Assembly (NCBI GenBank): GCA_900317715.1
Contig: ONHS01000004.1
Location: 18,481-82,480 of the forward strand
DNA: 64,000 nt
DNA from: an uncultured Bacteroidales bacterium
GTDB taxonomy: Bacteria > Bacteroidota > Bacteroidia > Bacteroidales > WCHB1-69
Direction: 5' to 3'
Positions 2,430-61,065 of this stretch are shown here, piece after piece. The position numbers were made by a program, and so were the translations under genes. A model generated the notes under the pieces. The model did not search any database. It saw nothing but the letters and a program-made list of their open reading frames with translations, and had not been told where the DNA came from. Numbering within the stretch: the stretch's first letter is position 1; each line of letters opens with the position of its first letter.

Positions 2430-2442
2430 TACTTTTTTAGGC

Positions 2443-2526
2443 AATAGGGAATAGGGAGTAGGCAAAAGTTATACGTCAAGCCAACAGCCAACAGCCAATA
2501 AACAAACCCAACCCAACAAACCGATA
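2443..2526. repeat. heptanucleotide array (12 units: AATAGGG x2, AGTAGGC, ..., CAGCCAA x2, TAAACAA, ACCCAAC...)
   Basis: Counted by hand with strict 7-nt register. Lies between the divergent nfeD and kinase promoters. Confidence 0.85.
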
Positions 2527-4355: not shown

Positions 4356-4363
4356 TGTGTGAC

Positions 4364-4398
4364 TTAAACCTTAAACCCTAAACCCTAAACCTTAAACC
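4364..4398. repeat. heptanucleotide array (5 units TTAAACC/CTAAACC)
   Basis: ttaaacc ttaaacc ctaaacc ctaaacc ttaaacc. Lies between the stop at 4355 and the glyQS ATG at 4403. Confidence 0.9.
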
Positions 4399-4402
4399 AA
4401 AA

Positions 4403-5917: not shown

Positions 5918-5939
5918 AATATAATTGAATTACCCCATT

Positions 5940-5976
5940 GTAGAGACGCGCTATGGCACGTCTCTACATTTATTTT
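5940..5976 (+). terminator. rho-independent terminator after glyQS
   Basis: GTAGAGACG-cgctatggca-CGTCTCTAC (9-bp perfect stem) followed by atttatttt. Confidence 0.75.
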
Positions 5977-6017
5977 AAATAGGGCAAATTTGCGGGAAAT
6001 ATATAATGCAAAAAGTG

Positions 6018-6025
6018 TATCTTTG
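6018..6025 (+). promoter_or_regulatory. -7 box TAtcTTTG for the GWxTD gene
   Basis: tatctttg, 34 nt before ATG 6059. Confidence 0.6.
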
Positions 6026-6058
6026 CAGATTCAAAATTAAAATGGAAAAATAGTGGAT

Positions 6059-7519: not shown

Positions 7520-7524
7520 TCGAT

Positions 7525-8124
7525 ATGAAGCGTCTGTTTGACATATTATCCTCGCTCATCGTGCTGATTATAGGCTTGCCGTTCGGCTTGCTGATTGCGT
7601 TGTGCATTTTGGTGGATTCACGCGGCAAGGTGATCTACAAGCAGAGTAGAGTAGGGCGGAATAATGTTGATTTCCAACTCTATAAGTTTCGCACGATGCG
7701 TACAGATGCGGATAAAGGCAGTCAAATCACGATTGGTGCGCACGATGCTCGCATCACCCATATCGGCGCGTTTTTGAGAAAGTATAAAATCGACGAGTTT
7801 CCGCAGTTCCTGAACATCCTCAAAGGGGAAATGAGTGTTGTGGGACCGCGTCCCGAAGTGCGCAAATACGTGGATATGTACACGCCCGAGCAGATGCGCG
7901 TGTTGAGTGTGCGCCCCGGCCTCACCGACTACGCCTCCATCCGCTACGTGAACGAAAACGAGCTCCTGGCCAAATCTGACAATCCAGAACAGACTTACAT
8001 CCAAGAAATTATGCCCGATAAACTAAAGTTGAACTTGAAGTACGTAGAGGAGCAATCCCTTGGGGTGGACCTGAAGATTATGTGGCAGACCCTGCTGGCG
8101 ATTGTGAAGAAAGATGACGTATGA
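7525..8124 (+). CDS. undecaprenyl-phosphate sugar phosphotransferase (bacterial sugar transferase family, WbaP/EpsL-like)
   Basis: 199 aa. One N-terminal TM helix, then YKFRTM, DEFPQFLNILKGEMSVVGPRP and PGLTDYA motifs. Confidence 0.9.
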   Translation: MKRLFDILSSLIVLIIGLPFGLLIALCILVDSRGKVIYKQSRVGRNNVDFQLYKFRTMRTDADKGSQITIGAHDARITHIGAFLRKYKIDEFPQFLNILKGEMSVVGPRPEVRKYVDMYTPEQMRVLSVRPGLTDYASIRYVNENELLAKSDNPEQTYIQEIMPDKLKLNLKYVEEQSLGVDLKIMWQTLLAIVKKDDV

Positions 8125-8295
8125 CGTATGACGTGAGACGTATGAAGAATGACGAATTAAGAATTAAGAATGACGAATTAAGAATTAAGTATTAAGAATG
8201 ATATGAATAGCCAACAGCTAATAGCCAATAGCCAATAGCTAACAGCCAATAGCCAAAGATTCCCTAAACCTTAAACCATAACCCCTAAACCCTAA
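8114..8295. repeat. heptanucleotide array, 26 consecutive in-phase units (ATGACGT, ATTAAGA, CAATAGC/TAACAGC, CCCTAAA families)
   Basis: Every unit boundary was verified by coordinate. The register is never broken across four motif families. It starts inside the last codons of the sugar transferase and ends 5 nt before ATG 8301. Confidence 0.95.
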
Positions 8296-8300
8296 CCGAT

Positions 8301-9890
8301 ATGTACACAAACGAACAAGGACTTTACGTGGCGCATTGCGAAGAGGGTGCGCTTTCCATTCAAGCTAAGATGGCCAACCGGCACGGTTTGATTGCCGGTG
8401 CGACAGGTACGGGTAAGACCGTCAGTTTGCAAGTGCTGGCCGAAACATTCTCACAAATTGGTGTGCCTTGCTTCATGGCCGACATGAAAGGTGACCTTTC
8501 CGGTATCAGTCAAAAGGGCCAGATGAGCGGTTTTATTGAGAAGCGTCTTCCCGAATTCGGTCTCGAAAGTCCTGAGTTTCAGGCTTGCCCGGTGCGCTTT
8601 TACGATGTCTTTGGCGAACAGGGCCATCCGATTCGCGCCACCATCTCACAGATGGGACCGCAATTGCTGTCGCGACTGCTTGGCCTTAACGAAACGCAGG
8701 ACGGCGTGCTCAACATCGTCTTCCGCATCGCCGACGAGCGTGGGCTGATGATCATCGACCTCAAGGATTTGCGGGCCATGCTGGAGTATGTCTCCAAACA
8801 TGCCAAAGAATATACGACGAAGTACGGCAATGTCTCTTCAGCCTCTATCGGCGCCATCCAACGCGCGCTGTTGCAGTTGGAAGCGCAAGGGGCGGACAAA
8901 TTCCTCGGAGAGCCGAGCTTTGACATCTATGACCTGATCCAGACCGAAAATGGCAAGGGCGTGATGAGCGTTTTGGCCGCTGACAAGCTGATGATGCAGC
9001 CGAAACTCTATAGTACTTTCCTGCTGTGGTTGCTTTCCGAACTCTACACCACGCTTCCTGAAGTCGGCGATTTGGACCAGCCGAAGCTCGTCTTCTTTTT
9101 CGACGAGGCGCACACCTTGTTTGAAGATACCTCTAAAGCCCTGATTGACAAGATAGAACAGGTAATCCGTCTGATTCGAAGCAAGGGCGTGGGTATCTAT
9201 TTCATCACCCAATATCCGACTGATATTCCGGACAACATCCTTGGACAGCTCGGTAACCGCATTCAACACGCTTTGCGTGCCTATACGCCTAAGGATCAGA
9301 AAGCGGTGCGCACAGCAGCCGACACCTTCCGTGCCAATCCGGCGTTCAAAACCGACGAGGCCATCATGAACTTGGAAACCGGCGAAGCTTTGGTTAGCTT
9401 TTTGGACGAGAAGGGAGCGCCGGGCATCGTGCAACGCGCGAAAGTCCTCTTCCCACTGTCGCAAATCGGTGCTATCACCGAGGGACAGCGGATGGACATT
9501 ATCAAGCAGAGCCGCGTCTATGGCAAATACGACACGCCTGTGGATAACGAAAGTGCTTTTGAAATGCTGATTAAAGAGGCGGAAGAGGCTTTGGCTGCAC
9601 AAGAAGAGGAAAAAGCAGCCATCGAAGAGGCCAAGCAGGAGAAGAAAGAAGAGAAGAAAGGGACGAAGAAACAAGGCGTTCTCGGCAAGGTCCTCAAAGC
9701 GATCATCACCGCCATTACGGCCACCATCGCCTCCGCAGTGGGCACCGCCGTCAGCGACAAAGTGACCGGCAAGAAGACAAAGTCCAAAACCTCCACCAAG
9801 GAAAAAGTGATCAAAAACACCACCTCGGCGGCCACCAGAACGATTACGAGAGAGATTTCGAGGGATATTCTGGGGAACATATTAAAATAG
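8301..9890 (+). CDS. HerA-like ATPase, DUF853 (YjgR-like) family
   Basis: 529 aa. Walker A (GATGTGKT), Walker B-like (LVFFFDEAH), YjgR-like N-terminus. Lys/Glu-rich linker and a hydrophobic, Lys-rich C-terminal tail. Confidence 0.8.
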
Positions 9891-9893
9891 TGA

Positions 9894-9968
9894 GTAGTTA
9901 GCAGTTAGAAGTTAGCAGTTAAGCTCCGATGCCGAATCACTACTAACTACTAACTGCTACCTGCTAAC
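9894..9968. repeat. inverted heptamer arms (GCAGTTA-type x4, 19-nt spacer, TGCTAAC/TACTAAC-type x4)
   Basis: Left arm 9894-9921, right arm 9941-9968. They can pair over about 25 bp with 3 mismatches. Confidence 0.85.
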
Positions 9969-9989
9969 TCAACATAGCTATTTCAAAAA

Positions 9990-11036
9990 ATGCGCAAAGT
10001 ATTAGTTATATATACTGGCGGAACCATCGGCATGATGATGGATCCGGAAACGAAGTCCCTGAAACCGTTCGAGTTCAAGGACGTTCATCAGCAGTTGCCT
10101 ATGTTGTCTCTGTTGGACACGGAGTTGACATTTGAGTCGCTGTTGCCGCTGATCGACTCTTCCGACACCAATCCGGATTTCTGGATTCGGTTGGCGAAGG
10201 TGATAGGGGAGAACTACGACCATTTCGACGGTTTCGTGGTGTTGCACGGCACCGATACGATGGCCTACACCGCATCGGCGTTGAGCTTCCTGTTGGAGAA
10301 CTTGGCGAAGCCCGTCATCCTCACAGGCTCGCAACTTCCCTTGGGCGTTATCCGTACCGATGGAAGGCGCAACATATTGAATGCCATAGAGTTTGCCTCT
10401 GCCGTGCAAGACGGGCACCCGATGATTCGCGAGGTGTGCGTCTATTTCCAGAATGCGCTCTACCGCGGTAACCGCACCTACAAGGACGATGCCGCGCGGT
10501 TCAATGCCTTCTATTCGCCAAACTATCCGAAGCTGGCCGATGTGAACACCTTCATCGACTATCACAAACGCTATCTCTTTATCCCGAACAGCAAAAATCC
10601 GCTCATCGTCCACGACAAGATGGACACCAACGTGGCGGTTCTGAAGATTTTCCCAGGCATCAGCGATGTTTTTTTGGAGACTGTTTTCCAGACCAAGGGA
10701 TTGAGGGCAGTGATCATGGAGACCTTCGGCGTGGGCAATGCGCCTACCAATCCCCACTTCTCTCGTATCCTGCAAGATGCTGTCAATCGGGGAATAGTGA
10801 TTGTGAACGTTACCCAATGCAAGGGTGGCGGCGGAGTGCTGATGGGACGCTACTACACGGGCAAGAATCTTTCCGACATTGGTGTCATCAGCGGCCATGA
10901 CATGACTACTGAAGCGGCCATCACCAAACTGATGTACCTCCTCGGCTGTTTCACCGACGTGAAGAAGATCAAGCAGGCGATGGAGGTGCCATTGCGCGGC
11001 GAGCTCACCCTGGAGGACGACATCCTCGATAATTAA
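9990..11036 (+). CDS. ansA: L-asparaginase, type I
   Basis: 348 aa. VIYTGGTIGM catalytic Thr motif, HGTDTMAYTASAL, and LRAVIMETFGVGN. Confidence 0.9.
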   Translation: MRKVLVIYTGGTIGMMMDPETKSLKPFEFKDVHQQLPMLSLLDTELTFESLLPLIDSSDTNPDFWIRLAKVIGENYDHFDGFVVLHGTDTMAYTASALSFLLENLAKPVILTGSQLPLGVIRTDGRRNILNAIEFASAVQDGHPMIREVCVYFQNALYRGNRTYKDDAARFNAFYSPNYPKLADVNTFIDYHKRYLFIPNSKNPLIVHDKMDTNVAVLKIFPGISDVFLETVFQTKGLRAVIMETFGVGNAPTNPHFSRILQDAVNRGIVIVNVTQCKGGGGVLMGRYYTGKNLSDIGVISGHDMTTEAAITKLMYLLGCFTDVKKIKQAMEVPLRGELTLEDDILDN

Positions 11037-11091
11037 TAAAACCTCTTCCTTAAGCAGCCTCGAAGAGGCAACACGCACGCAGTGCAAGTAA

Positions 11092-11119
11092 CCCCACACA
11101 AGCGAAGCGCAGTGTGGGG
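11092..11119. repeat. REP-like hairpin CCCCACAC-N12-GTGTGGGG, copy 1
   Basis: 8-bp perfect stem. The loop AAGCGAAGCGCA contains a GCG-AAG-CGC mini-hairpin. Confidence 0.8.
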
Positions 11120-11129
11120 ATGATGAGAA

Positions 11130-11156
11130 CCCCACAAGGCGAAGCGCAGTGTGGGG
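11130..11156. repeat. REP-like hairpin, copy 2 (tandem)
   Basis: CCCCACA aggcgaagcgcag TGTGGGG. Nearly identical to copy 1 and lies 10 nt downstream of it. Confidence 0.8.
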
Positions 11157-11177
11157 AAACAACAAAACCACAAACCA

Positions 11178-15402: not shown

Positions 15403-15451
15403 TAACTGCTAACTACTAACTGCTAACTAATCACTGTTCCCTGTTCCCTGA
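15403..15451. repeat. heptanucleotide array (TAACTGC, TAACTAC, TAACTGC, TAACTAA, TCACTGT, TCCCTGT, TCCCTGA)
   Basis: 7 in-phase units upstream of the propeller gene. Confidence 0.9.
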
Positions 15452-26069: not shown

Positions 26070-26651
26070 CTAGTACGATACACGTTGGAACGCCATGCCC
26101 ACACTTTTCGCACCGTCGCCGTCAGTGTCTTTCCTGTCACCAACCATCAGACATTCAGACGGTTGACAACCAATTTCCTGGCATATCTTCTCGAAAGATT
26201 CCTTGCAGGGTTTCAGTCCGCCGAGGGCGGGCGCTTCGAAAAGGTGGTCCGCCCATTCAAGCTTGAAACCGATGGCCTTCAGCTTCTCACGCACACATCC
26301 ATAGTCGGAAAAGATGACCACTTTCTGACTGTAGGCACGGATTTCCGCCATTTTTTTTCCCACCCACGGGGCAATCCGATAATGTTCACGCAAAATACGC
26401 ACCATGTCGGGCATGTAGGTCTCAAAGTACCACCTCCGGGCCAGTTCCGGACGGGCGAAATGGGCGAAAAAGGCTTCGTAGAAGGCCTCTTCGCTATCGT
26501 AGTGATGCCCGCGCAACATTTTGCGTACCTCGCGCTCGCGTTTGAGCATACCCAAACCACCTTTCCGCAGCTGACTCAACATCAGGCGTCGTGCCAACCC
26601 GGATTTGTCATAAAGGGTGCCGTCTAGATCGAATATAATGGCTTTGTACAT
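26070..26651 (-). CDS. HAD-superfamily hydrolase (subfamily IA-like)
   Basis: 193 aa. Motif I (IIFDLDGTLYD), motif III/IV region (GLKPC...MVGDRKDTDGDGA). Confidence 0.85.
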   Translation of the reverse strand: MYKAIIFDLDGTLYDKSGLARRLMLSQLRKGGLGMLKREREVRKMLRGHHYDSEEAFYEAFFAHFARPELARRWYFETYMPDMVRILREHYRIAPWVGKKMAEIRAYSQKVVIFSDYGCVREKLKAIGFKLEWADHLFEAPALGGLKPCKESFEKICQEIGCQPSECLMVGDRKDTDGDGAKSVGMAFQRVSY

Positions 26652-26747
26652 GTTTTTGTCGGCTCGTCAGAGGTTCATTAGGCCTACTCTTTTTGCGGTT
26701 TTCGGCACCCCCGCTTTTCTGCTGAAATTTTATAAAGAATTAAACGG

Positions 26748-29504: not shown

Positions 29505-29507
29505 TTT

Positions 29508-29553
29508 AATTCATAATTCATAATTCATAATTCATAATTCATAATGCATAATT
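29508..29553. repeat. heptanucleotide array (AATTCAT x5, AATGCAT)
   Basis: Spans the 20-nt gap between the NUDIX stop and the hydrolase start and extends into the NUDIX 3' end. Confidence 0.9.
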
Positions 29554-30064: not shown

Positions 30065-30087
30065 AATCGTTTGTCAATTTTGCGGCG

Positions 30088-30095
30088 CAAAGGTA
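30088..30095 (-). promoter_or_regulatory. -7 box TAccTTTG for the NUDIX gene
   Basis: The reverse complement of caaaggta matches. Lies 24 nt upstream of ATG 30064. Confidence 0.6.
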
Positions 30096-30125
30096 CAAAA
30101 AAATGCGATTTTCCCCGAAATATGT

Positions 30126-30133
30126 TATCTTTG
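30126..30133 (+). promoter_or_regulatory. -7 box TAtcTTTG for the transglutaminase-like gene
   Basis: tatctttg, 22 nt before ATG 30155. Confidence 0.6.
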
Positions 30134-30154
30134 CGGCCTAAATATTTTTGGCTT

Positions 30155-32782
30155 ATGTGTAAAAAATCATTACCACAGTTGTTCTTCAACTTCTTGATAT
30201 GCTTTTTGTTGGCTTCTACGACCTTCGCGCAAACCGACTACTGGAGTGCGGTGTATCTGGATTGTCAAAACCGTCCCGGGGTGTCGCAAAATATATACGA
30301 GAAGATTTCGAATTATAGCATCATGTCCGACGTCCACAGTCGCGATATGGCGCAATATCTCACCTTTTTGTACGCCTACATGCCGCAGAGCGACCTCGCT
30401 GATTATGATTTAAAGTTCTTCGAGGATCAGGTGAAAGTGGCGTTGGAGGCGCGGGAGACTTTCTCTTGGGGCAAAACCATTCCCGACGACATCTTCCGCC
30501 ATTTCGTGGTCGTCTATCGCGTGAACAACGAGAATCTGGACACCGCGCGGTCGTATATCTTTCACCAGCTGAAAGACCGCATCAAGAATATGAGCATGTA
30601 CGATGCCGCGTTGGAGGTGAACCATTGGTGCCACGAATACGTTGACTATCAGCCTGCTGATGTGCGTACATCGGCGCCGTTGGCCACGTTGAAGACTTCG
30701 CACGGGCGTTGCGGCGAGGAGAGCACCCTCACGGTGACGGCGTTGCGCGCTGTGGGCATCCCAGCCCGTCAGTGCTACACCCCGCGCTGGGCGCACTGCG
30801 ACGATAACCACGCATGGGTGGAGGTCTGGGTCGATGGCAAGTGGTGGTTCCTCGGTGCCTGCGAGCCCGATCCCGACCTCAATATGGGCTGGTTTGCTTA
30901 TCCCTCCACGCGCACGATGATGGTACACACCAACGTCTTCGGCCGCTACGAGGGTCCCGAAGAGGTCAACAAGAAGACGCGGTACTATTCCTGCATCAAT
31001 GTATTGTCCAATTACGCTGATACGGTACATCTTACCATTACGGTGGTCGATGAGCAGCACCAGCCCGTCAAGGATGCTTTGGTGCGTTTCAAACTATATA
31101 ACTATGCCGAATACTACACGTTGGCCGCCAAGTTGACCGACGAGAATGGTCAGGCTTCGCTCGTCACGGGCAAGGGCGATCTGTTAGTGTGGGTTAGCAA
31201 GGATGGTATGTATGGTTATGATATAATTGATGGTCGCACCCCAAAAGGGTGTACTATAATGTTGTTCCCAAACTATATTACAGGAACACCTCTCATTCAC
31301 ATGAATGCAGAGTATTATGAGGATTTCACCATTGTGCCGCCCGTGGGCAATCCTGACATTCCCGCACCGGATCCCGTCCGTCAGGCGCGTTGCGAGCAGC
31401 GCAAGCAGTATGAGGACTCTTTGCGCGAGGCCTACCGTGCCACGTTCCCCACGGAAGCGTGGGTGAAAGCGAACCTGAAAAGCGAGTACTTCACCGACGA
31501 GGAACTCTACGACATCGTGCGCCGCAGTGAGGGCAACTATCTTGAAATCATCCTATTTCTGCAAAAGTATGACAAGAAGGAGGATGGACTTTATCTGAAA
31601 GAATTTATCAACGCATTGTCGGATAAGGATTTGCGAGATACGAAGTGGCAAACCTTGGAGCGACAGCTCACCTACTACCACGAGGGTGACTATCCGTTAG
31701 ATGTATATTTCAAAGGCATTTTGCCGGCACGAATTTCCAATGAACTGATTCGTGGTTGGCGGGGTGTAATGAGTCGCGGCTTTCATTTGTTTGATGAGGA
31801 CCGTTCCATAAAAACAATCTATGATTTCGTCAAGAAAACCATTGTGGTGGACAATGAGTGCAATTACTATAATTGTCCCATAAGTCCGATAGGCGTTATA
31901 CGTTTCAATCGGGCAGACGCCCACTCCCGCGATATTTTCTTCGTAGCGCTTTGCCGTGCTTTGAACAAACCCTGTTATTTAGACAATGCCTCCAACGAAA
32001 TATATGCGTGGGAGAACGGCAAATGGAATTTGGTGACCTTCGAAGAAAAGCCCGTTGAGGAGTACAAAACGCTTATCCTAAATAATCCCAACAAGATGGG
32101 GTATTACACGCAATACACACTGCAACGTTTTGAGAACGGGGAATTTGTGAGCTTCGATTTCGAGAACGACCCGCGTGTGGAGACCAACCCCATCGTGCTC
32201 TCCGTGCCTGCGGGTTACTATTGTCTCTCCCTGGGCGAGCGCCAACCAGACGGCAGTGTTTTCTCGCAAATGCAGTTCTTCAACGTAACGAAGGATACCA
32301 CCGTGCGTGAGATCAGCAGGGAGGTGAATCAAGATGTTGTCGTTTTTGCGAATGTACGTGAATCCGCCGGAACCATCAACATGAAGAAGACGAAAGTCGG
32401 AAATGTTTCTTTGGCTAATATTCTGAAGAAGAGCGGTAAAGAGCATCTTATACTATGTCTAGGGAAGCCTGGTACCGAACCTGTCAACCACCTGATGAAA
32501 GAGATGGCAGCCAAGCAAGAGGGTTATGAAACATGGAATGGCCCGATGTTTTTCGTTAAGAAAGAGGGACAGTGGAAAAGTGAAGCCAAACAGCCGAAAA
32601 ATCTGAATGTGGTTGAGGAGGGCTATGATGAACTCGTCGCCATTTTTAAGAAAGCGTTGAATGGCGAACTGTCCGAATGGAGCCCGATGTGCTTTGTCAT
32701 CGACAAGAATGGCCATATCCTTTACTTCTCCGAAGGCTACAACATCGGGGTGGGGGACAGGATGCTGGAAATCGTGAAATAG
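30155..32782 (+). CDS. transglutaminase-like domain protein (secreted, multi-domain)
   Basis: Signal peptide from ATG 30155 (MCKKSLPQLFFNFLICFLLASTTFAQ). Cys-His-Asp transglutaminase core (HGRCGEESTL...DNHAWVEVWVDGKWWFLGACEPD). The -7 box at 30126-30133 excludes the ORF-track start at 30056. Confidence 0.85.
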   Translation: MCKKSLPQLFFNFLICFLLASTTFAQTDYWSAVYLDCQNRPGVSQNIYEKISNYSIMSDVHSRDMAQYLTFLYAYMPQSDLADYDLKFFEDQVKVALEARETFSWGKTIPDDIFRHFVVVYRVNNENLDTARSYIFHQLKDRIKNMSMYDAALEVNHWCHEYVDYQPADVRTSAPLATLKTSHGRCGEESTLTVTALRAVGIPARQCYTPRWAHCDDNHAWVEVWVDGKWWFLGACEPDPDLNMGWFAYPSTRTMMVHTNVFGRYEGPEEVNKKTRYYSCINVLSNYADTVHLTITVVDEQHQPVKDALVRFKLYNYAEYYTLAAKLTDENGQASLVTGKGDLLVWVSKDGMYGYDIIDGRTPKGCTIMLFPNYITGTPLIHMNAEYYEDFTIVPPVGNPDIPAPDPVRQARCEQRKQYEDSLREAYRATFPTEAWVKANLKSEYFTDEELYDIVRRSEGNYLEIILFLQKYDKKEDGLYLKEFINALSDKDLRDTKWQTLERQLTYYHEGDYPLDVYFKGILPARISNELIRGWRGVMSRGFHLFDEDRSIKTIYDFVKKTIVVDNECNYYNCPISPIGVIRFNRADAHSRDIFFVALCRALNKPCYLDNASNEIYAWENGKWNLVTFEEKPVEEYKTLILNNPNKMGYYTQYTLQRFENGEFVSFDFENDPRVETNPIVLSVPAGYYCLSLGERQPDGSVFSQMQFFNVTKDTTVREISREVNQDVVVFANVRESAGTINMKKTKVGNVSLANILKKSGKEHLILCLGKPGTEPVNHLMKEMAAKQEGYETWNGPMFFVKKEGQWKSEAKQPKNLNVVEEGYDELVAIFKKALNGELSEWSPMCFVIDKNGHILYFSEGYNIGVGDRMLEIVK

Positions 32783-32941
32783 TTAGCAGTTAGCAGTTAG
32801 TAGTTAGCAGTTATGGCCAACAGCAAACCGTCAACAGCCAAAAGCTAAAAGCCAACAGCTAATAGCTAACGGCCAATAGCCAAAGTTCAAAGTTCAAGGT
32901 TCAAGGTTCAAAGTTCAAGGTTCAAAGTTCTACCATCTCCC
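32781..32941. repeat. heptanucleotide array, 23 in-phase units (AGTTAGC x4, then GCCAACA/GCTAATA family x10, then TTCAAAG/TTCAAGG x6)
   Basis: 161 nt = 23 x 7, verified unit by unit. It runs from within the stop codon at 32780-32782 to the base before ATG 32942. Confidence 0.95.
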
Positions 32942-33382
32942 ATGCTCGCAAAATTAGGATTATTCGGTCTGTTCATAGGGTGTATGCTCTCTGCCACGGT
33001 AATTCCGTTTTCTTCGGAGGCATTGCTGGCGGGAGCGTTGCTGCTCGACTATCCCACGTGGATTGTTATCCTCGTGGCATCGTTGGGCAATACGGCGGGC
33101 GGAATGATCAGCTTCGCCATGGGCTGGTTCTGCAAATGGTCGTGGATAGAGAAATACCTGAAAGTCAAGGAGGAATCCTTGGAAAAGGCACGACTGAAGG
33201 TGGAAAAATACGGCGTGCTGGCGGCGCTGCTCACCTGGCTGCCCGTCGTCGGCGATGTAATCGCCATCGCCATGGGACTCATGCGCATCCGCCCCTTCTG
33301 GACTTCCGTGCTGATGTTTGTAGGAAAAGCCGCAAGGTATATCGTGGTAGCGGGAGTGATGGGGATGGCGGTTAGCTTTTAG
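32942..33382 (+). CDS. YqaA/DedA-related small membrane protein
   Basis: 146 aa, four TM helices. The patterns VIPFSSEALL and LTWLPVVGDVIAIAMG are typical of the YqaA family. Confidence 0.75.
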   Translation: MLAKLGLFGLFIGCMLSATVIPFSSEALLAGALLLDYPTWIVILVASLGNTAGGMISFAMGWFCKWSWIEKYLKVKEESLEKARLKVEKYGVLAALLTWLPVVGDVIAIAMGLMRIRPFWTSVLMFVGKAARYIVVAGVMGMAVSF

Positions 33383-33459
33383 CAGTTAGCAGTTAGAAGT
33401 TAGTAGTTAGCAGTTAATGGCCAACAGCTAACAGCCAACAGCCAATAGCTAATAATTAA
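33383..33459. repeat. heptanucleotide array, 11 units (CAGTTAG family x5, then CAGCCAA/TAGCTAA family x5...)
   Basis: Begins immediately after the stop at 33380-33382. The first 45 nt or so are nearly identical to 32781-32824. Confidence 0.9.
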
Positions 33460-33471
33460 CAAAAAAAAATG

Positions 33472-33479
33472 TACCTTTG
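33472..33479 (+). promoter_or_regulatory. -7 box TAccTTTG for the fatty-acid CoA ligase
   Basis: tacctttg, 51 nt before ATG 33530 and directly after the heptamer array. Confidence 0.55.
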
Positions 33480-33529
33480 CGCCTTGAAATAGACATCCTC
33501 TAATTACCAGACAATCAATTAGAAACAAT

Positions 33530-35194
33530 ATGAAAAAGAAAAAGAAACAGATTGAGCCGACGAGGCATTTTTTTACATACTACAACCGGACTATTCCTGA
33601 GAATTGGAATTCGCCTGCTCTTACAGATTACAATGGCACAACCAGTTACACCTATGGTGAGATGGCTGCACAGATTGTGAAGCTGCAAATGATGATGCAA
33701 GACTGTGGCTTGGGACGCGGCGATAAGGTCGTGATTTGCAGCCGTAATTGCTCCAATTGGGCGGTCGCGCTACTGGCCATTGCCGCCAATCGTGGTGTTA
33801 TCGTCTCCATCATGGATGCTTTTGCGCCCACCGACATCGAAAATTTGACCAACCACTCGGATGCCAAAGCGATGTTTGTGAGCCAGAACGTATGGAAAAA
33901 CATTGATGTACAGCATTTGGAGAATGTCAACTTGATTCTCGACACCGATGATTTCCAGTTGTTGTACGCACGTGACGAGCAACAGGAGAGGGCTTTCGGG
34001 CAATATAAGGACAAATATCGCGAAAAATATCCGCGCGGACTGAATCGCGAGGACATCAATTTCCCGACCGACAATTTGGACGATTTGATGATCATCAACT
34101 ATACCTCGGGCACTACGGGTGCACCGCGCGGCGCGATGCTGAGCTATCGCAACATCTCCGCCAATGTGCAGTACAGTCAGGAGGAGATCCCCAACCACGC
34201 GGGCTGGACGGAAGTCTGCATGCTGCCTCTTGCACACATGTTCGGGATGACCATCGAATTTCTCTACCAGGTGGCGGGAGGTTGTCACGTCTATTTCTTG
34301 GGTAAAACCCCGTCCCCGGCCACGCTGTTGAAGTGCTACGCCGAGACCAAACCTTACATGATTCTGACGGTGCCGTTGGTGATTGAGAAGATATTCAAGG
34401 CCAAGATTTTCCCCGCTTTGGCGAAACCGAGCGTGAAGGTGCTGTGGAATACACCGATATTGTGCAAAGTGGTAGAGAAAAAGATTTACCAGCAGCTGAT
34501 GAATGCCTTCGGAGGCAACCTGATATGGCTGATCACAGGCGGTGCCGCGCTGAACCAGGAAGTTGAGCGCGTGTTGCGTCGCATCAAGTTCCCGTTGGTG
34601 GTGGGCTACGGCATGACGGAAGCAGGTCCGTTGGTGAGTTACGAGCATTGGTACAAACAGACGCTCGGCTCCTGTGGCAAAGTGGTGACGCGCAACGAAA
34701 TCATGGTCAACTCGCCCAACCCGAGACAAGAAGTCGGCGAAATCCTCTTCCGTGGCGAGCACGTGATGATGGGCTACTACAAGAACGAGGAAGCCACAAA
34801 AGCTGCCATCGACAGCGAAGGTTGGCTGCACACTGGCGACCTCGGACTCATGGACAAGTTGGGCAACATCTATATCAAAGGTCGTAGCAAAGCGATGATT
34901 CTCACCGCCGGCGGCCAAAATATCTATCCCGAGGAGTTGGAGGCCAAACTCAGCAACCTGCCGGGTGTCTCCGAAGCACTGGTGGTGGGTCGCAACGGTA
35001 AGCTCGTGGCGTTGGTCTATCCCGATCCCGCCTTCGATTGGAGCGCCATCTCCGTTGAGGAACAGATGAAACAGAATTTGCAGCAAATCAATACTTTGGT
35101 GGCTAAGTACGAACAGATTGCCGCCATTGAAACCGTCGATCAGGAGTTTGCGAAGACCCCGAAGCGGTCGATCAGGAGGTTCTTGTATAAGTAA
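33530..35194 (+). CDS. long-chain fatty acid--CoA ligase (AMP-binding family)
   Basis: 554 aa. AMP-binding motif (YTSGTTGAPRGAMLSYRN), GYGMTE, and TGDLG...YIKGRSK. Confidence 0.85.
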   Translation: MKKKKKQIEPTRHFFTYYNRTIPENWNSPALTDYNGTTSYTYGEMAAQIVKLQMMMQDCGLGRGDKVVICSRNCSNWAVALLAIAANRGVIVSIMDAFAPTDIENLTNHSDAKAMFVSQNVWKNIDVQHLENVNLILDTDDFQLLYARDEQQERAFGQYKDKYREKYPRGLNREDINFPTDNLDDLMIINYTSGTTGAPRGAMLSYRNISANVQYSQEEIPNHAGWTEVCMLPLAHMFGMTIEFLYQVAGGCHVYFLGKTPSPATLLKCYAETKPYMILTVPLVIEKIFKAKIFPALAKPSVKVLWNTPILCKVVEKKIYQQLMNAFGGNLIWLITGGAALNQEVERVLRRIKFPLVVGYGMTEAGPLVSYEHWYKQTLGSCGKVVTRNEIMVNSPNPRQEVGEILFRGEHVMMGYYKNEEATKAAIDSEGWLHTGDLGLMDKLGNIYIKGRSKAMILTAGGQNIYPEELEAKLSNLPGVSEALVVGRNGKLVALVYPDPAFDWSAISVEEQMKQNLQQINTLVAKYEQIAAIETVDQEFAKTPKRSIRRFLYK

Positions 35195-35238
35195 AAGTAA
35201 GGGCTGCCGCATTGCGACAGCCCTATTCATTTCGCCGA

Positions 35239-38099: not shown

Positions 38100-38127
38100 T
38101 AACTGCTAACTACTAACTGCTCACTCC
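38100..38127. repeat. heptanucleotide array (TAACTGC, TAACTAC, TAACTGC, TCACTCC)
   Basis: On the minus strand it reads CAGTTAG-type units directly after the stop of the 38121-39659 gene. Confidence 0.8.
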
Positions 38128-39659
38128 TCGATTGCGTATTTCGTCATATAGACCTCGCCGCCTCTGATGCCGGAGGCGTAGAAGTTGTCGCCGTCGGTGA
38201 AATCCACATAGCGGAGCAGCTGCTTGGTCTCAGGGAATACGCGCTGAGTGAGTTTCTGGTCGGGGGTGAGGCGCATCAGCACGCTTTTCCAGTTGTTGGT
38301 GATACCGAAACCGGCGAAAGTGCAGACCGCATCCTTTCCGGGGTAGGGGATGTTCTTGGTGTCGTCGTTGAAGAGGAAGTACATATCGTCCCCATGGGCG
38401 AAGGCGGTGTAGGAGACGCAGACGGGCCGCCAGTCGTCGTCAGGGAAGGTGCCCTTGGACGACATCTGTTGCTTCTCCACCATGGTGAAGTTGGACGTGC
38501 CGTCGGTCTTGAGGGTGGAGACCAGTATGTTTTTGGTGAGCATCTGGTAGGTGTAGCTGTGCATGTTGCCGTCATAAATCTCCTTGATGAAGCGGTGTTC
38601 GCCGCAAAGCACCAGATTGCCGTTTGCCAACTCGAAGATGTCGCCCGCGCTGATGGAGTACTGCTGGTTGCCGAGTACGGAGGAGAAACGGGCCCACGCC
38701 GTCTTCTCCACGTAGTCGCTGGCGAAGGGGAAGTTTTTCAGGTCAGTGATGTTCTCCGACTTAGTGTCGAACTTGTAAAAGTAGTAGCCGCTCGTCTGAA
38801 TGGCGGTGTTGGTCATGGATTCTGTGTAGTAGCCCGCAACGGCGATGTTGCCGTCCTTGAGCACCTTGGCGGTGAAATTCTGCGGGGTGCCGAAGCTCAC
38901 TTCCTCCGTGTAGGTTTCGGTGCCGTCTTCGGTGGTCTTGGTCATCATAAGGTTGACATTGGATATGTTCTTGCCGCTCACCTGGCAGGTGTAGGCCGGC
39001 AGGTAGAGGGTACCGTTGTTGTCCATCGTGAGGTTGCCCAACGAGAAGCTCTTTCCTCCGAATTCTGGGGTGACGGCCCCGTTCCACACGACCTCGCCTT
39101 GGTTGTTGATTACCAATGCGGAAAGGCTCTCTAACTGGCTGTCTTTTCCGGTGACCATCACTAATACCGCCAGCAGCTTGCCGTCCGGAGATTTGGCGGT
39201 CTTGAACTCCGGCCAGTATTTGGCGTTGGTCGGAACGGTAACCGTAGTGGCATTGTCCAAAGTCACCTGCTTGGCGTTTCTGTCAATATTGGCGATGGTG
39301 AAGATGGCTTGGTCACCCTTCTTGGACAGGCTCTGGTACAATGCGATGACTCCGTCCTCGGAAAGGATGGCATCCAGCATCGTGTGGGTGTTGGGTGTGG
39401 TGACGGGAATATCCGTTTTGGCCATCGTGTTCTTGTCGATGAAGAAAACATGCTCGGTCCAGGTTTTCGGTTTGAAAGAGTCTGAATGACGGGGCGACAG
39501 GTAGTAGTAGAGGGTCTCTTCATCCTGTCCGATGGATGTTCCGATGATAGTGGAACGTCTGATCCAACAATTGGAGAAAGGTTCGCAAAGCGTTACGCTT
39601 TGTGCCATCATGCTGATCGACAGCGCGATAAAAACGGTTAAAAAGGTTAATTTTTTCAT
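38121..39659 (-). CDS. hypothetical secreted protein (beta-rich, no family recognised)
   Basis: 512 aa. Signal peptide (LSISMMAQ). Coding-like composition throughout, with its own -7 box and terminator. Confidence 0.6.
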   Translation of the reverse strand: MKKLTFLTVFIALSISMMAQSVTLCEPFSNCWIRRSTIIGTSIGQDEETLYYYLSPRHSDSFKPKTWTEHVFFIDKNTMAKTDIPVTTPNTHTMLDAILSEDGVIALYQSLSKKGDQAIFTIANIDRNAKQVTLDNATTVTVPTNAKYWPEFKTAKSPDGKLLAVLVMVTGKDSQLESLSALVINNQGEVVWNGAVTPEFGGKSFSLGNLTMDNNGTLYLPAYTCQVSGKNISNVNLMMTKTTEDGTETYTEEVSFGTPQNFTAKVLKDGNIAVAGYYTESMTNTAIQTSGYYFYKFDTKSENITDLKNFPFASDYVEKTAWARFSSVLGNQQYSISAGDIFELANGNLVLCGEHRFIKEIYDGNMHSYTYQMLTKNILVSTLKTDGTSNFTMVEKQQMSSKGTFPDDDWRPVCVSYTAFAHGDDMYFLFNDDTKNIPYPGKDAVCTFAGFGITNNWKSVLMRLTPDQKLTQRVFPETKQLLRYVDFTDGDNFYASGIRGGEVYMTKYAIEE

Positions 39660-41778: not shown

Positions 41779-42342
41779 ATGAAAAGATTGATTTTATTGG
41801 CTTTAGTGAGCCTGATCACGCTGGGTGCAAGTGCTCAGCAGACCAAAGCGGCCTCCAAGAATGAGCAGACCGTGACGATTCAAACCAACGGCGTTTGTCA
41901 GAAATGTGCAGACAAGTTCGCAGAGAATGTCCCTTATTTCAAGGGCGTTAAGTCTTACACCTACGACATGAAGACCGCGAAGCTGACGATTACCTATGAT
42001 TCAAAGAAAACCAATCCTGACCAGTTGCGTCAGCAAATCAGCAAGTTAGGTTACAATGCTGACGATGTGAAGGCTGATGCTGCTGCACGTGCCAAACTGC
42101 CTGCTTGCTGCCGTGTGGAAAAGAGCACGAGCGGTTGTGGTGGCTGTTCCGGTCACGGCAACGGTCAAGGCTGCGGTAATCATGGCAACGGCCAAGGATG
42201 CGGTAACCATGGAAATGCTCAGAAGAGCTGCAGCGGCCACAGCAATGGTCAAGGCTGCGGAAATCACGGTGATGCTCAAAAGAGCTGCGGTAACCACGGT
42301 AATGGCCAAGGTTGCGGCAATCACACCGACCAAAAGAAATAA
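41779..42342 (+). CDS. heavy-metal-associated (HMA) domain protein with Cys/His/Gly-rich repeat tail
   Basis: Signal peptide. HMA-like fold with GVCQKC in place of GMxCxxC. The C-terminal approximately 70 aa consist of CGNHGNGQG / CGNHG(N/D)AQKS repeats. Confidence 0.7.
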   Translation: MKRLILLALVSLITLGASAQQTKAASKNEQTVTIQTNGVCQKCADKFAENVPYFKGVKSYTYDMKTAKLTITYDSKKTNPDQLRQQISKLGYNADDVKADAAARAKLPACCRVEKSTSGCGGCSGHGNGQGCGNHGNGQGCGNHGNAQKSCSGHSNGQGCGNHGDAQKSCGNHGNGQGCGNHTDQKK

Positions 42343-42369
42343 TTCGTCAGGTTACAATTAACGAAAAAG

Positions 42370-42406
42370 GAGCATGGGGTTCGTAAGGGTCTCATGCTTT
42401 TTTTTG
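42370..42406 (+). terminator. candidate terminator after the HMA gene
   Basis: GAGCATG-N16-CATGCTT followed by T8. Large loop. Confidence 0.45.
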
Positions 42407-42996
42407 TATCTTTGCACCGTCAAAATACATCGGATCACCGCATGGCAAAGGTCAAAACAAACATCTACATGGGAATCTGTGATCTGTAACAATGAGGAAA
42501 CAACCAATGCAATCTTTAACGAAGGCATCAGCTCTTTGGTGAAATACCCCATCGGCATACAGACATTCGAGAAGATTCGCACGGAAGGTTACGCCAGGTG
42601 ATGGGGAAGCTGGAAATCTATTTCCAGAACACGTTGTCGGTCATCTTCAAGCTGATGGGGTTGTATGTACAGGTGGAGCGTCACACGAGCCGCGGCCGCA
42701 TGGACGTGACCATCCAGACTCGCGACTATGTCTATGTCATGGAGTTGAAAGTCGATAAGTCCGCTGACGAGGCCCTGAAGCAGATTGAGGACAAACAGTA
42801 CGCCGCCCCCTTCGCCGCCGACCCGAAGCAGTTGTTCAAAGTCGGGGTCTGTTTCGGCAGCGAAAGCAAGGGCATTGTTTGCCACTCTCTGTCCGGCCAA
42901 CAACAAAAACCCTATTGGATGCTCTACGGTCTCGACCAGTTGTTGCATCAGTTGGTGATTGTCGGGATTTGGTATTGTTGCTGCATGAACTTCTGA
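42374..42996 (+). pseudogene. internally deleted paralog of the AAA-ATPase-like / PD-(D/E)XK (DUF1703-type) gene
   Basis: One frame ends KYPIGIQTFEKIRTEGYAR*, which matches the N-terminus of the family (compare KYPVGIQTFSRLREEGY at 43.08 kb). The next frame continues with the C-terminal nuclease part RGRMDVTIQTRDYVYVMELKVDKSADEALKQIEDKQY. About 400 codons of the middle are missing. Confidence 0.7.
42407..42414 (+). promoter_or_regulatory. -7 box TAtcTTTG upstream of the decayed AAA-ATPase-like paralog
   Basis: tatctttg. Confidence 0.5.
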
Positions 42997-43035
42997 GAAA
43001 TAACATTAGAAGTTGCGCCCGACACGGATTTTTTG

Positions 43036-43043
43036 TATCTTTG
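43036..43043 (+). promoter_or_regulatory. -7 box TAtcTTTG for the intact AAA-ATPase-like gene
   Basis: tatctttg, 21 nt before ATG 43064. Confidence 0.6.
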
Positions 43044-43063
43044 CGCCGTTAAAACCCGTACTG

Positions 43064-50381: not shown

Positions 50382-50416
50382 CAACTGCTAACTACTAACT
50401 GCTAACTTCTAACTGA
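50382..50416. repeat. heptanucleotide array (CAACTGC, TAACTAC, TAACTGC, TAACTTC, TAACTGA)
   Basis: Encodes the last codons (..VRS*) and the 3' flank of the minus-strand patB-like gene. Confidence 0.85.
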
Positions 50417-51517
50417 ACAGATTCGTCGCAGTCCCTCCAGCACCGTCTCCCTGTTTGTTCCGATGTTCATCCGCATAAATCCTTCGCCTTCAGGACCGAA
50501 ATCCGTGCCGTTGTTGAGACCGATTTTGGCATCGTAAATCAATTTTCTTTCCAAATCTTTCTGCGAAAGGTGCCATGCGCGGAAATCCATCCACAACAAA
50601 AAGGAGGCCTGCGGGCGCATGAAGGTGATTTCCGGACAGTTTTCTTTCAGGAATTGTTCCGCCGTGTCAATGTTGCCTTGCAGGTATTCGAGCAACTGCT
50701 GCAGCCATTCTTCGCCGTGCGCGAAGGCCGCCTCCGCCGCGTAATAACCGAAAATGTTCCCTAACGACAACTCGTTGTGGTCCAGGAATCCGAAAAATGT
50801 CTTGCGGATTTCTTCATCCGGCACGTAACAGACCGACGAGGCCAATCCCGCCATATTGAAGGTCTTGCTCGGTGCGAAAAAGGTGATGGAGTTGTGCAAC
50901 GCCGCCTCCGACACCGTAGTGAAGGAGGTGTGATGAAACTCGGGGTAGGTGAGGTCGGCATGGATCTCATCCGAAATAACCAACACTTTGTGTTTGAGAC
51001 AAATATCGGCCACCTGCGACAGCTCCTCTTTCGTCCAAACCGTGCCGCCGGGATTGTGGGGATTGCTGAGAATCATCACCTTGCAACCTTGCGCTTTGCG
51101 GTCCAAATCCTCGAAATCGAAGGTGAAGCGACCGTTGTCCGTCTTCAGGGGACTGCTCACGAAGACGCGTCCCGTACGATGCGGCACGTTGATGAAAGGG
51201 GGATACACCGGCGTGGTGATCAGCACCTTATCGCCAGGGACGGTAAACGTTTGCAGCACAAAGGCAATGCCCTGCACGATACCCGGAATGAAGTGCATCT
51301 TGTTCCATTTCGTTGCGATTCCGTATCGTTTCTGAAACCAGTTCAATACGGCCATCTTGTAGCTGTCGGGCGCAAACGTATAACCCAGCACCTCATGGTC
51401 GCAACGCTTCCGTATCGCATCCAGAATGAAATCCGGCGTTTTGAAATCCATATCTGCCACCCACATCGGCAGCAAATCCTCCGTCCCGAAAACCTCACGG
51501 GTCATGTCGTGCTTCAC
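50402..51517 (-). CDS. PLP-dependent C-S lyase / aminotransferase (MalY/PatB family)
   Basis: CVKHDMTREVFGTEDLLPMWVADMDF aligns with the PatB SVKWD...LPMWVADMDF block, and a PLP-enzyme body follows. The ORF as given starts at GTG. The conserved first 8 codons (MNYDFNTI) lie out of frame upstream (see findings). Confidence 0.8.
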   Translation of the reverse strand: MKHDMTREVFGTEDLLPMWVADMDFKTPDFILDAIRKRCDHEVLGYTFAPDSYKMAVLNWFQKRYGIATKWNKMHFIPGIVQGIAFVLQTFTVPGDKVLITTPVYPPFINVPHRTGRVFVSSPLKTDNGRFTFDFEDLDRKAQGCKVMILSNPHNPGGTVWTKEELSQVADICLKHKVLVISDEIHADLTYPEFHHTSFTTVSEAALHNSITFFAPSKTFNMAGLASSVCYVPDEEIRKTFFGFLDHNELSLGNIFGYYAAEAAFAHGEEWLQQLLEYLQGNIDTAEQFLKENCPEITFMRPQASFLLWMDFRAWHLSQKDLERKLIYDAKIGLNNGTDFGPEGEGFMRMNIGTNRETVLEGLRRICSVRS

Positions 51518-59814: not shown

Positions 59815-59853
59815 GTAGAGACGCGCCAATGGCACGTCTCTACTTTTGTTTTT
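59815..59853 (+). terminator. terminator after the SDR gene; near-identical copy of the glyQS terminator
   Basis: GTAGAGACG-cgccaatggca-CGTCTCTAC followed by ttttgttttt. Confidence 0.75.
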
Positions 59854-60981: not shown

Positions 60982-61065
60982 GGGAGTAGGGAATAGGGAG
61001 TAGGCTTTAGACCACCTGAACCATAAACCATAAACCTTAAACTCTATACCATAAACTAAATAGTG
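60982..61065. repeat. heptanucleotide array, 12 units (GGGAGTA/GGGAATA x3, ..., TAAACCA/TAAACCT/TAAACTC family)
   Basis: Fills the spacer between the ACP stop (61056-61058) and the start of the GNAT-like gene (60967). Confidence 0.9.

Follow-up and report, generated by a model that had tools for sequence, protein, structure and literature searches.

The stretch of DNA analyzed here, hereafter the window, comprises 64,000 nucleotides of contig ONHS01000004.1 (assembly GCA_900317715.1, positions 18,481 to 82,480 of the forward strand) of an uncultured Bacteroidales bacterium. It harbors a small gene, yqaA, which codes for a YqaA/DedA-family membrane protein, lies between a transglutaminase-domain gene and an AMP-ligase gene and is bracketed by two composite arrays of tandem heptanucleotide units, this bracketing having been noticed in a prediction made from the sequence alone (the original prediction). 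Arrays were detected with Tandem Repeats Finder (TRF) and by a separate period-7 scan, which agree with each other, and with the original prediction, at all coordinates named in the latter. The gene map was compiled from gene calls on identical metagenome contigs, Pfam and a reading of the spacers, and the gene identities proposed previously, namely HerA_C (DUF853), Transglut_core, VTT_dom (YqaA/DedA) and a class I/II aminotransferase, were corroborated. The features of the yqaA locus are as follows:

30155-32782 (+): transglutaminase-domain gene (Pfam Transglut_core on the identical gene of metagenome contig L001)
32781-32813 (+): CAGTTAG array, 4.7 copies, in sense, directly after the transglutaminase stop (TRF, scan)
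32816-32884 (+): CCAACAG / CTAAAAG / CCAATAG array, approximately 9.7 degenerate copies (TRF)
32881-32930 (+): GTTCAAR array, 7.1 copies, separated from the yqaA ATG by 11 nt (TRF)
32942-33382 (+): yqaA/DedA-family membrane protein gene, 441 nt, 146 amino acids (PF09335, VTT_dom)
33371-33416 (+): CAGTTAG array, 6.6 copies (TRF)
33420-33454 (+): CCAACAG / CTAACAG array, 4.3 copies, together with 33384-33416 the copy of the upstream composite
33472-33479 (+): Bacteroidetes-type -7 promoter box TACCTTTG of the AMP-ligase gene, downstream of the arrays (motif scan)
33530-35194 (+): AMP-binding (long-chain acyl-CoA synthetase-like) gene (Pfam AMP-binding; names of cluster members)

The transglutaminase gene ends in AAA TAG, its stop codon (32780-32782) being in phase with the first unit of the array that follows, while the adjacent CCAACAG-type array (32816-32884) is an imperfect complement of the CAGTTAG units. 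On the other side of yqaA, the 3′ end of the gene (GCG GTT AGC TTT TAG) is itself already array, with the last codons and the TAG derived from array units; the first two units of 33371-33416 are degenerate and overlap this 3′ end, after which CAGTTAG is repeated five times. An A-run separates the downstream CCAACAG array from the promoter box, and the AMP-ligase ATG is located 50 nt past TACCTTTG.

The two composites (32781-32849 and 33384-33452) are identical in 63/69 aligned columns and share the non-periodic junction CAGTTA(A)TGGCCAACAGC, which reads TTA-TGG in the upstream and TTAA-TGG in the downstream composite, so that the near-identity claimed for them extends to sequence outside the repeat period. 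A search of 238 array-bearing loci for any composite of NAGTTAG followed by CCAACAG, in all four relative orders and orientations, had its sole match, the CAGTTA(A)TGGCCAACAG composite, at yqaA in the window species and its sister species; the order of stop, CAGTTAG and CCAACAG described in the original prediction is present on both sides of yqaA and at no other of these loci. The downstream composite of the window equals the upstream composite of L005-type strains of the sister species less one 7-nt unit, indicating that the upstream composite is ancestral. The composite 3′ of yqaA is a local copy, approximately 70 nt in length, of the older upstream one and is confined to the window species.

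Three metagenome contigs encode the same YqaA protein; they are 99.8-99.96% identical to the window and without indels over 4-20 kb. Members of its protein cluster are named as ‘Bacteroidales bacterium’ metagenome-assembled genome proteins, and the sequencing runs containing the window sequence derive from the gut or rumen of bovines and sheep. The window species shares the order transglutaminase-yqaA-AMP-ligase with a sister species (94% identity in YqaA) and an outgroup (91% identity in YqaA), the arrays of these relatives being as follows:

Sister species, strains L005-L007, upstream of yqaA: three CAGTTAG units, AATGG and a CCAACAG array, without GTTCAAR
Sister species, strain L004, upstream of yqaA: no CAGTTAG pad; CCAACAG and GTTCAAR, approximately 5 copies
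Sister species, all strains (L004-L007), downstream of yqaA: TTAAGAA array, three copies
Outgroup, upstream of yqaA: other, weak heptamers, without GTTCAAR
Outgroup, downstream of yqaA: spacer of 64 nt free of arrays, in which the promoter box is retained

The CAGTTAG array at 33371-33416 is absent from this position in both the sister species and the outgroup, while the -7 box TATCTTTG before the AMP-ligase gene is conserved in both despite other arrays or none. The C-terminus of YqaA is different in each species (MAVSF*, ALFN* and MVAG*), since its final codons and the stop codon are drawn from the array. Rapid change by whole units between conserved flanks is likewise found at other sites: the copy number of TAATTCA differs between the window and the sister species at 29507, the sister species carries one extra CAGTTAG unit at 38100, and four AATTCAT units at 41630 are replaced by GAATTAA/GAATGAT units, as one family is also swapped for another after yqaA. 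The hairpin terminator at 35195-35238 is identical in the two species. In the relative L254, the leader of the dihydrolipoyl dehydrogenase gene (lpd) holds 3 degenerate CCAATAG units downstream of a promoter box, as against approximately 12 units in the window, and in a more distant array-rich genome yqaA is located tightly between cotH and nqrA without flanking arrays, a CAGTTAG array being found there directly after the stop of another gene. With regard to phase variation, the three window-species assemblies show no indel and the sister strains have 0 or 3 CAGTTAG units, as far as consensus assemblies reflect this. On these comparisons the arrays behave as mutational products which turn over much faster than their flanks, by 7-nt steps, by replacement of one family by another in the same slot and by gain where close relatives have none, and which overwrite the last few codons and the stop of the upstream gene.

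The window contains 23 period-7 arrays totalling 901 bp, 793 bases (88%) of which are intergenic; non-coding DNA constitutes 13.6% of the window, and approximately 9% of its intergenic DNA is heptamer array. The chance expectation is approximately 0.03 period-7 arrays (mean of 200 shuffles of the intergenic sequence), and the period scan identified no arrays of periods 8-12 in the window. The excess is thus limited to period 7 and to non-coding DNA. Arrays of three or more tandem 7-nt copies are present, TRF copy numbers at the named sites ranging from 2.7 to 9.7, at least nine unit families occur, and several unrelated families are concatenated per spacer in the composite spacers 8114-8295, 32781-32930, 60982-61056 and 63348-63467. 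These are the traits of short tandemly repeated repetitive (STRR) sequences, and the arrays belong to this known class of intergenic 7-nt tandem repeats. The principal families are distributed as follows (TRF and scan):

CAGTTAG family: 9896-9921, 32781-32813 and 33371-33416 (+); 38100-38118 and 50383-50415 (-)
CAGTTAG family, reverse reading TAACTGC on the plus strand: 9939-9969 and 15403-15436, both missed by the original prediction
CCAACAG family: 2479-2498, 8206-8256, 32816-32884, 33420-33454 and 63384-63467
GGGAATA family: 2438-2462 and 60982-61004
GTTCAAR family: 32881-32930

STRR heptanucleotide arrays were reportedly described in heterocystous cyanobacteria by Mazel et al. in 1990, and Mrazek et al. 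are said to have found 7-nt simple sequence repeats (SSRs) over-represented in some bacterial genomes in 2007. The window arrays resemble STRR sequences in their head-to-tail 7-nt units, their many unit sequences, their intergenic location and the combination of several families per spacer, and identical NAGTTAG arrays were identified by a genome scan, among the matches listed, in Nostoc, Calothrix, Rivularia and other Nostocales. They differ in their host, an uncultured rumen Bacteroidales bacterium, in the share of the window's intergenic DNA that they occupy, and in the dominance of CAGTTAG, CCAACAG, GTTCAAR and TAATTCA rather than the classical STRR1-3 units, the CCAACAG unit presumably being one base removed from STRR3 (CAACAGT). 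The over-representation of 7-nt SSRs in some bacterial genomes has also been summarised elsewhere (PMC4692102).

Outside the yqaA locus, the arrays that bear on orientation within the window are:

9894-9969 (+): CAGTTAG array followed by its reverse complement CTAACTG, forming a long inverted repeat (sequence)
15403-15436 (+): TAACTGC array, 55 nt upstream of a plus-strand gene (TRF, intergenic map)
38100-38118 (-): CAGTTAG array directly 3′ of the stop of the minus-strand gene 38121-39659
50383-50415 (-): CAGTTAG array overlapping the TAG stop of the class I/II aminotransferase gene 50402-51517 (Pfam)
2438-2498 (+): GGGAATA array, then CCAACAG array, between divergent -7 boxes
60982-61056 (+): GGGAGTA and AACCATA arrays, between an acyl carrier protein (ACP)-like open reading frame (ORF; -) and the gene 59852-60967 (-)
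63348-63467 (+): TAATTCA array, then CCAACAG array, approximately 12 units, followed after 18 nt by a dihydrolipoyl-dehydrogenase-like gene

In the inverted repeat at 9894-9969, the CAGTTAG arm follows the stop of the gene encoding HerA_C, a family formerly called DUF853 (Pfam), and the CTAACTG arm ends 20 nt before the asparaginase start. The divergent boxes around 2438-2498 are located at 2422-2429 on the minus and 2534-2541 on the plus strand. Read in the sense of the minus-strand operon, the arrays of 60982-61056 are G-rich where they follow the stop and C-rich where they precede the start; the small minus-strand ORF beside them we take to be ACP-like from a by-eye reading of its translation, and the label is putative. 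All five CAGTTAG arrays listed in the original prediction start at or overlap a same-sense stop, with the TAG in phase in 4/5, but the family totals seven arrays, the two further ones being read in reverse and located 5′ of plus-strand starts. The two GGGAATA arrays have the place and orientation ascribed to them. The CCAACAG arrays lie in sense 5′ of a plus-strand gene in 5/5 cases in the window, but this bias is not found among 120 taxonomically mixed stretches retrieved by a metagenome scan, where co-directional spacers contain 17 sense and 12 antisense arrays, a difference that is not significant, and 12 sense against 23 antisense arrays abut stops. Many CCAACAG matches fall inside long ORFs, as the unit has no stop codon on either strand.

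The orientation of the CAGTTAG-type arrays, by contrast with that of CCAACAG, holds far beyond the window. A scan of species-representative genomes for four AGTTAGN units yielded at least 118 stretches, and the counts for genome loci given here refer to the matches listed (118 loci in more than 100 species), which include Nostocales, many Bacteroidota, Ignavibacteria, Balneolaceae, Clostridia, Planctomycetota and others. A strand-symmetric test was applied, in which long ORFs with a same-strand stop -30 to +25 nt from the array 5′ end were counted against long ORFs with an opposite-strand stop beside the 3′ end. NAGTTAG arrays follow a stop in sense in 68 cases and in antisense in 7 (p ~1e-13), a bias which is observed in Bacteroidota and their Fibrobacteres-Chlorobi-Bacteroidetes (FCB) relatives (20:3), in Cyanobacteria (32:0) and in the remaining groups (16:4), and for N = G, A, T and C alike. 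Among start-proximal arrays the TAACTGN reading is favored (18:6), and NAGTTAG arrays on IMG/VR viral contigs show the same tendencies, with 33 vs 10 after stops and 16 vs 6 before starts. In other heptamer families at the same loci, whose units had not been selected for, the sense strand beside a stop shows an excess of G over C in 77 cases and the reverse in 17 (NAGTTAG family: 83 vs 9), as compared with 341 vs 281 in array-free control sequence after stops. Where stop content is equal, both or neither of the orientations containing stops, the G>C bias is 31 vs 9. Before starts, the NAGTTAG family leans towards G-poor units (25 vs 9, p = 0.009).

The claim of the original prediction that families are oriented by genes is therefore upheld: orientation is non-random, with the G-rich, stop-bearing strand running 5′ to 3′ away from the adjacent ORF, and the rule spans phyla and viral contigs. 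On the mRNA, NAGUUAG or another G>C unit follows the stop, and the unit before a start tends to be CUAACUN or otherwise G-poor, this second half of the rule being significant for the NAGTTAG family only. Two simple causes of the polarity were rejected. Stop supply cannot be the sole cause, as NAGTTAG contains stops in both directions and the bias persists at equal stop content, and a replication-strand bias is refuted by a GC skew that is positive across the window, which places both array orientations in one replichore.

GAGTTAG is the commonest NAGTTAG variant across phyla, accounting for 99/396 arrays among the matches listed (loci L011-L128). Its sense reading presents a Shine-Dalgarno-like AGGAG once per unit, while the window arrays mostly have N = C, T or A.

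Two later-described forms of this class of repeats show related positional preferences. TAACTGA repeats occur in Beggiatoaceae, cyanobacteria and some Bacteroidetes, where lineage-specific gains and composite heptamer assemblages have been reported in Bacteroidetes and reverse copies after stop codons in Flexibacter (MacGregor 2015; PMC4679880). The window arrays share with these an intergenic location, stops in all frames and, at 9939 and 15403, forward copies just before starts, but their units (TAACTGC, TAACTAC and TAACTTC) are one base removed from TAACTGA. The Beggiatoaceae sets are, furthermore, mostly start-proximal, whereas in the window two of the seven arrays are forward and 5′ of a gene and five are reverse and post-stop, and the listed NAGTTAG loci are likewise mostly stop-proximal (68 vs 18 start-proximal). 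The second system comprises the GGGNATC repeats (GGGAATC, GGGGAYT) of Xanthomonas and Nostoc, which lie ≤50 bp after a stop on the coding strand or ≤50 bp before a start on the non-coding strand, are located closest to the 5′-neighboring ORF in either ORF orientation and often overlap the stop (Rehm et al. 2015; PMC4692102). The likeness extends to the positional rule, stop overlap, convergent pairs forming inverted repeats, rarity between divergent genes, variation in copy number among close relatives and the lack of a replication-strand bias. Both GGGAATA/GGGAGTA arrays of the window (2438 and 60982) are related in unit and follow this rule, but with approximately three G-tracts they fall short of a G-quadruplex (G4; at least four tracts of at least three G), and the CAGTTAG, CCAACAG and GTTCAAR units have no G-tracts. 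Since most window arrays thus cannot form quadruplexes, the G4 explanation put forward for the GGGNATC family cannot cover the shared rule.

Two further systems are more distant. The REP/BIME elements of enterobacteria (repetitive extragenic palindromes and bacterial interspersed mosaic elements) are likewise located 3′ of genes or between the genes of an operon, oriented by genes and able to form a stem-loop from two arms, and Liang, Rudd and Deutscher reportedly found in 2015 that stop-proximal REPs affect translation. REPs are, however, palindromes of 20-40 nt spread by a RAYT transposase, while the window arrays are 7-nt direct repeats. The 7-bp repeats 5′ of hmw1/hmw2 in Haemophilus influenzae resemble the present arrays in that the units lie between promoter and start, where copy number could tune expression, but they are presented as hypervariable contingency loci at a few surface-protein genes (PMC8262952, PMC12721329). 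The arrays of the window species, by contrast, adjoin housekeeping genes genome-wide, and three assemblies show no change in copy number. In the literature after 2015, nothing was found on the function of heptamer arrays or on arrays in Bacteroidales.

We suggest that the yqaA flanks, which are STRR-type heptamer arrays, probably arose by slippage and ectopic copying, are tolerated as passengers and have an orientation filtered through the transcript. Slipped-strand mispairing and local ectopic copying would generate arrays wherever intergenic DNA tolerates them, mostly in intra-operon spacers and 3′ trailers lacking promoters. The orientation rule would then represent a selective filter on the transcript, which after an ORF would favor stops in every frame and C-poor sequence, and before a start would favor G-poor, unstructured sequence, in a phylum whose translation initiation dispenses with Shine-Dalgarno pairing. 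A stem-loop would form where both complementary arms are present. The arrays would accordingly have side effects on C-termini and spacing, and would be neither conserved dedicated elements nor cassette boundaries.

Several observations weigh against this proposal. The supply of stops cannot explain the ratio of 68 vs 7, as NAGTTAG has stops in all frames in both readings. No slippage was seen among the three window-species assemblies, whose arrays are identical. The before-start lean is weak in the unselected families (30 vs 19, p = 0.15), and the window itself contains exceptions: the AATTCAT (41630) and TAATTCA (63348) arrays read C>G after plus-strand stops, and GTTCAAR reads G≥C just before the yqaA start. 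The gene calls in the foreign loci are simple long-ORF calls, and the RNA data are unstranded assembled contigs, possibly containing DNA. Finally, as the rule is symmetric about ORF boundaries, one process at the DNA level would be more economical than two RNA filters.

Dedicated and positively selected RNA elements, in which a CAGUUAG trailer would halt ribosomes in all frames and a CCAACAG or C-rich leader would act as an unstructured landing pad for initiation independent of Shine-Dalgarno sequences, are an unlikely alternative, broadly the one put forward in the original prediction. It accords with the strong sense bias after stops in both the listed genome loci and viral contigs, with the G-poor lean of start-proximal arrays, significant as this is for NAGTTAG only, and with the proposal of translational regulation by TAACTGA repeats just before starts (MacGregor 2015; PMC4679880). 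Motif scanning identified Bacteroidetes -7 boxes (TAnnTTTG) 20-60 nt upstream of approximately 20 window genes, and most array-bearing spacers have none, appear intra-operonic and are presumably co-transcribed, which also accords with such elements. At 2397-2538 and 33383-33529, however, the box lies between the arrays and the downstream gene, so that these two array sets are upstream of promoters and not in the leader of that gene. The predicted unstructured leader fares equally unevenly: for the purely C-rich leader at 4356-4402 no structure is predicted (minimum free energy 0), but the composites around yqaA are predicted to fold and CCAACAG is unbiased in the broad sample. As a stop pad alone the trailer is no explanation, since the reverse reading CTAACTG also has TAA stops in all three frames, and pads vary between sister strains and species at the same gene ends, L004 having none where others have three units.

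In rumen metatranscriptome and metagenome contigs, the array bins reach 50-250 times the depth of their flanks and carry many different flanking sequences, which indicates that the same arrays are present at hundreds of rumen loci. A single RNA contig extends out of the 3′ end of the transglutaminase gene into the CAGTTAG array that follows it; none spans the whole spacer at 7500-11100. As these are unstranded assemblies, transcript 3′ ends cannot be located from them.

Polarity might instead originate in the DNA, through directional growth or deposition of arrays from ORF boundaries or through a polar DNA-binding or structure-forming activity, with any RNA effects being incidental. The symmetry of the rule, by which the G-rich strand has its 5′ end towards the nearest ORF at stops and starts alike, would follow naturally from such a process, as would its occurrence in phages, prophages and many phyla and the presence of some arrays in untranscribed DNA upstream of promoters. 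We nevertheless regard it as quite improbable. When 133 NAGTTAG arrays were compared for unit degeneracy beyond their 5′ and 3′ ends, no clear asymmetry emerged apart from a partial 3′ unit, which gives no clear sign of polar growth; no replication-strand bias is evident in the window or in the study of Rehm et al. (PMC4692102); and no candidate enzyme or binding protein was identified.

An equally long shot, in our estimation, is that the arrays constitute a cross-phylum, strand-polar punctuation of ORF boundaries, in which the G-rich, stop-bearing reading would always point out of the gene and be recognised by some machinery. Candidates for this machinery would be an RNA-binding protein or a ribonuclease that acts on NAGUUAG-type trailers, or else a polar DNA process, and it would be common to Bacteroidota, cyanobacteria, some Firmicutes and their phages, insulating neighboring cistrons in lineages that make little use of Shine-Dalgarno sequences. 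RNase E has a loose preference for a purine and any base followed by cleavage before A/U-U-U, and it may be speculated from the motif that NAGUUAG would fit this preference in the sense but not in the antisense reading.

It is very doubtful that a stem-loop of CAGUUAG and CUAACWG arms is the functional unit, acting in the manner of a REP element or a terminator to stabilise mRNA 3′ ends, to provide a site for processing or, just past the stop codon, to block translation or transcription. Each CAGUUAG unit can pair with CUAACAG at 8/9 positions, and the composites are predicted to fold on account of this complementarity, the upstream one at -31.8 kcal/mol (z = -4.3) and the one 3′ of yqaA at -18 kcal/mol (z = -3.0). 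The inverted pair at 9886-9975, which is perfect, is predicted to fold at -32.1 kcal/mol (z = -5.6). Complementary arm pairs are convergent in seven cases and divergent in none, and 70-75 convergent pairs have been counted per Xanthomonas genome (Rehm et al., PMC4692102). Yet many arrays have no partner, including those at 38100 and 50383 and most of those at other loci, and single arrays follow the orientation rule as well. Every unit of the composite stem contains an A-A mismatch, and what comes after the stem is A-rich and not a U-tract, unlike the G+C-rich hairpin and U-tract of an intrinsic terminator; the genome has hairpin terminators and REP-like palindromes of its own. No Rfam family matches any window array.

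The remaining proposal of the original prediction, that arrays are recombination sites between which genes such as yqaA move as cassettes, fits the placement of yqaA between direct repeats matching in 63/69 columns, the adjacency of AMP-ligase and lpd, both preceded by CCAACAG in the window, in some relatives, and the gene-rearrangement role speculated on by MacGregor (2015; PMC4679880), but is highly improbable and was rejected, since gene order is the same in three species with different arrays or none and yqaA is not a presence/absence polymorphism among them, arrays are missing on both sides of yqaA in the distant array-rich genome, no further locus among the 238 carries the composite, a 2.6-kb indel in the sister species is not array-flanked, and no unambiguous deletion joint was seen. 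In four rumen runs over 32300-34000, no joint deleting yqaA could be distinguished from contigs of other loci: skips of 494-644 nt are other-locus contigs which share the arrays, and the one skip of 603 nt cannot be told apart from the composite 3′ of yqaA itself.

Heptanucleotide arrays have been on record since 1990. The present arrays form a major intergenic component in an uncultured rumen Bacteroidales bacterium, and an orientation rule reported earlier for one G-rich family appears to be general, applying to NAGTTAG with any N, to unselected families and to viral contigs, a generality which removes the G-quadruplex explanation. They rewrite the last codons and stop codons of ordinary genes, break short-read assemblies, mislead the calling of start codons and can be mistaken for regulatory motifs or cassette boundaries.

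With respect to start calling, arrays rich in stops in all frames tend to mislead longest-ORF calls. The longest-ORF start of the pfkB kinase gene (TTG, 2539-2541) falls inside the -7 box TATCTTTG, and the true start must therefore be located further downstream.

A TAATTCA array at 29505-29553 fills the entire 20-nt spacer between two minus-strand genes. It supplies the final residues and TGA stop of the NUDIX gene, and its minus-strand reading (TGAATTATGAATTA...) offers ATG codons just before the start of the next gene. The CCCTAAA and CTTAAAC arrays (8262-8295 and 4363-4398) correspond, in reverse complement, to the plant-type telomere repeat TTTAGGG, a resemblance that is probably coincidental.

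Larger rearrangements are also observed among the relatives. Strain L004 of the sister species carries 2.6 kb (4575-7269) with two extra genes (69 and 683 amino acids) between the NUDIX and transglutaminase genes, corresponding to a 90-nt spacer in the window (30065-30154), and there are no heptamer arrays at the edges of this indel. In the relative L254 (2574-5668), lpd and the AMP-ligase gene are adjacent, with a 26-nt spacer, while in the window lpd (63485-64000) and the AMP-ligase gene (33530-35194) are 28 kb apart, each with a CCAACAG array before it. The nucleotide identity of L254-type relatives to the window is approximately 84% for the AMP-ligase gene and 91% for the 5′ region of lpd.

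Small dispersed elements of other kinds are present as well. REP-like palindromes (GTAGAGACG...CGTCTCTAC, also as GTAGAGACGCGC...GGCACGTCTCTAC) are located just 3′ of genes at 5940-5967 and 59815-59843, and two occur in tandem after the AMP-ligase gene of the array-poor relative L254 (~5670-5750). They are distinct from the heptamer arrays and resemble the GTAG-tagged REP class (PMC3733652). A second element consists of CCCCACA...GCGAAGCGCAGTGTGGGG hairpins, two of which stand in tandem after the asparaginase gene (11093-11158), with partial reverse-complement copies (CCACACTGCGC) in two other spacers (24436 and 50265).

The HMA-domain gene (41779-42342) contains coding tandem repeats of 27 and 57 nt (42153-42324) that are unrelated to the heptamer arrays. 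It is followed by a 670-nt stretch (42343-43063) with a promoter box at 42407 and short ORFs, which correspond to PDDEXK_9 fragments on identical contigs and precede an AAA-ATPase_like/PDDEXK_9 gene; this stretch may represent a disrupted or split gene. The sole Rfam match in the window is the DUF805b RNA motif (26681-26715, minus strand; 37.9 bits against a gathering threshold of 35.6), which adjoins the 5′ side of the minus-strand HAD-hydrolase gene 26070-26651.

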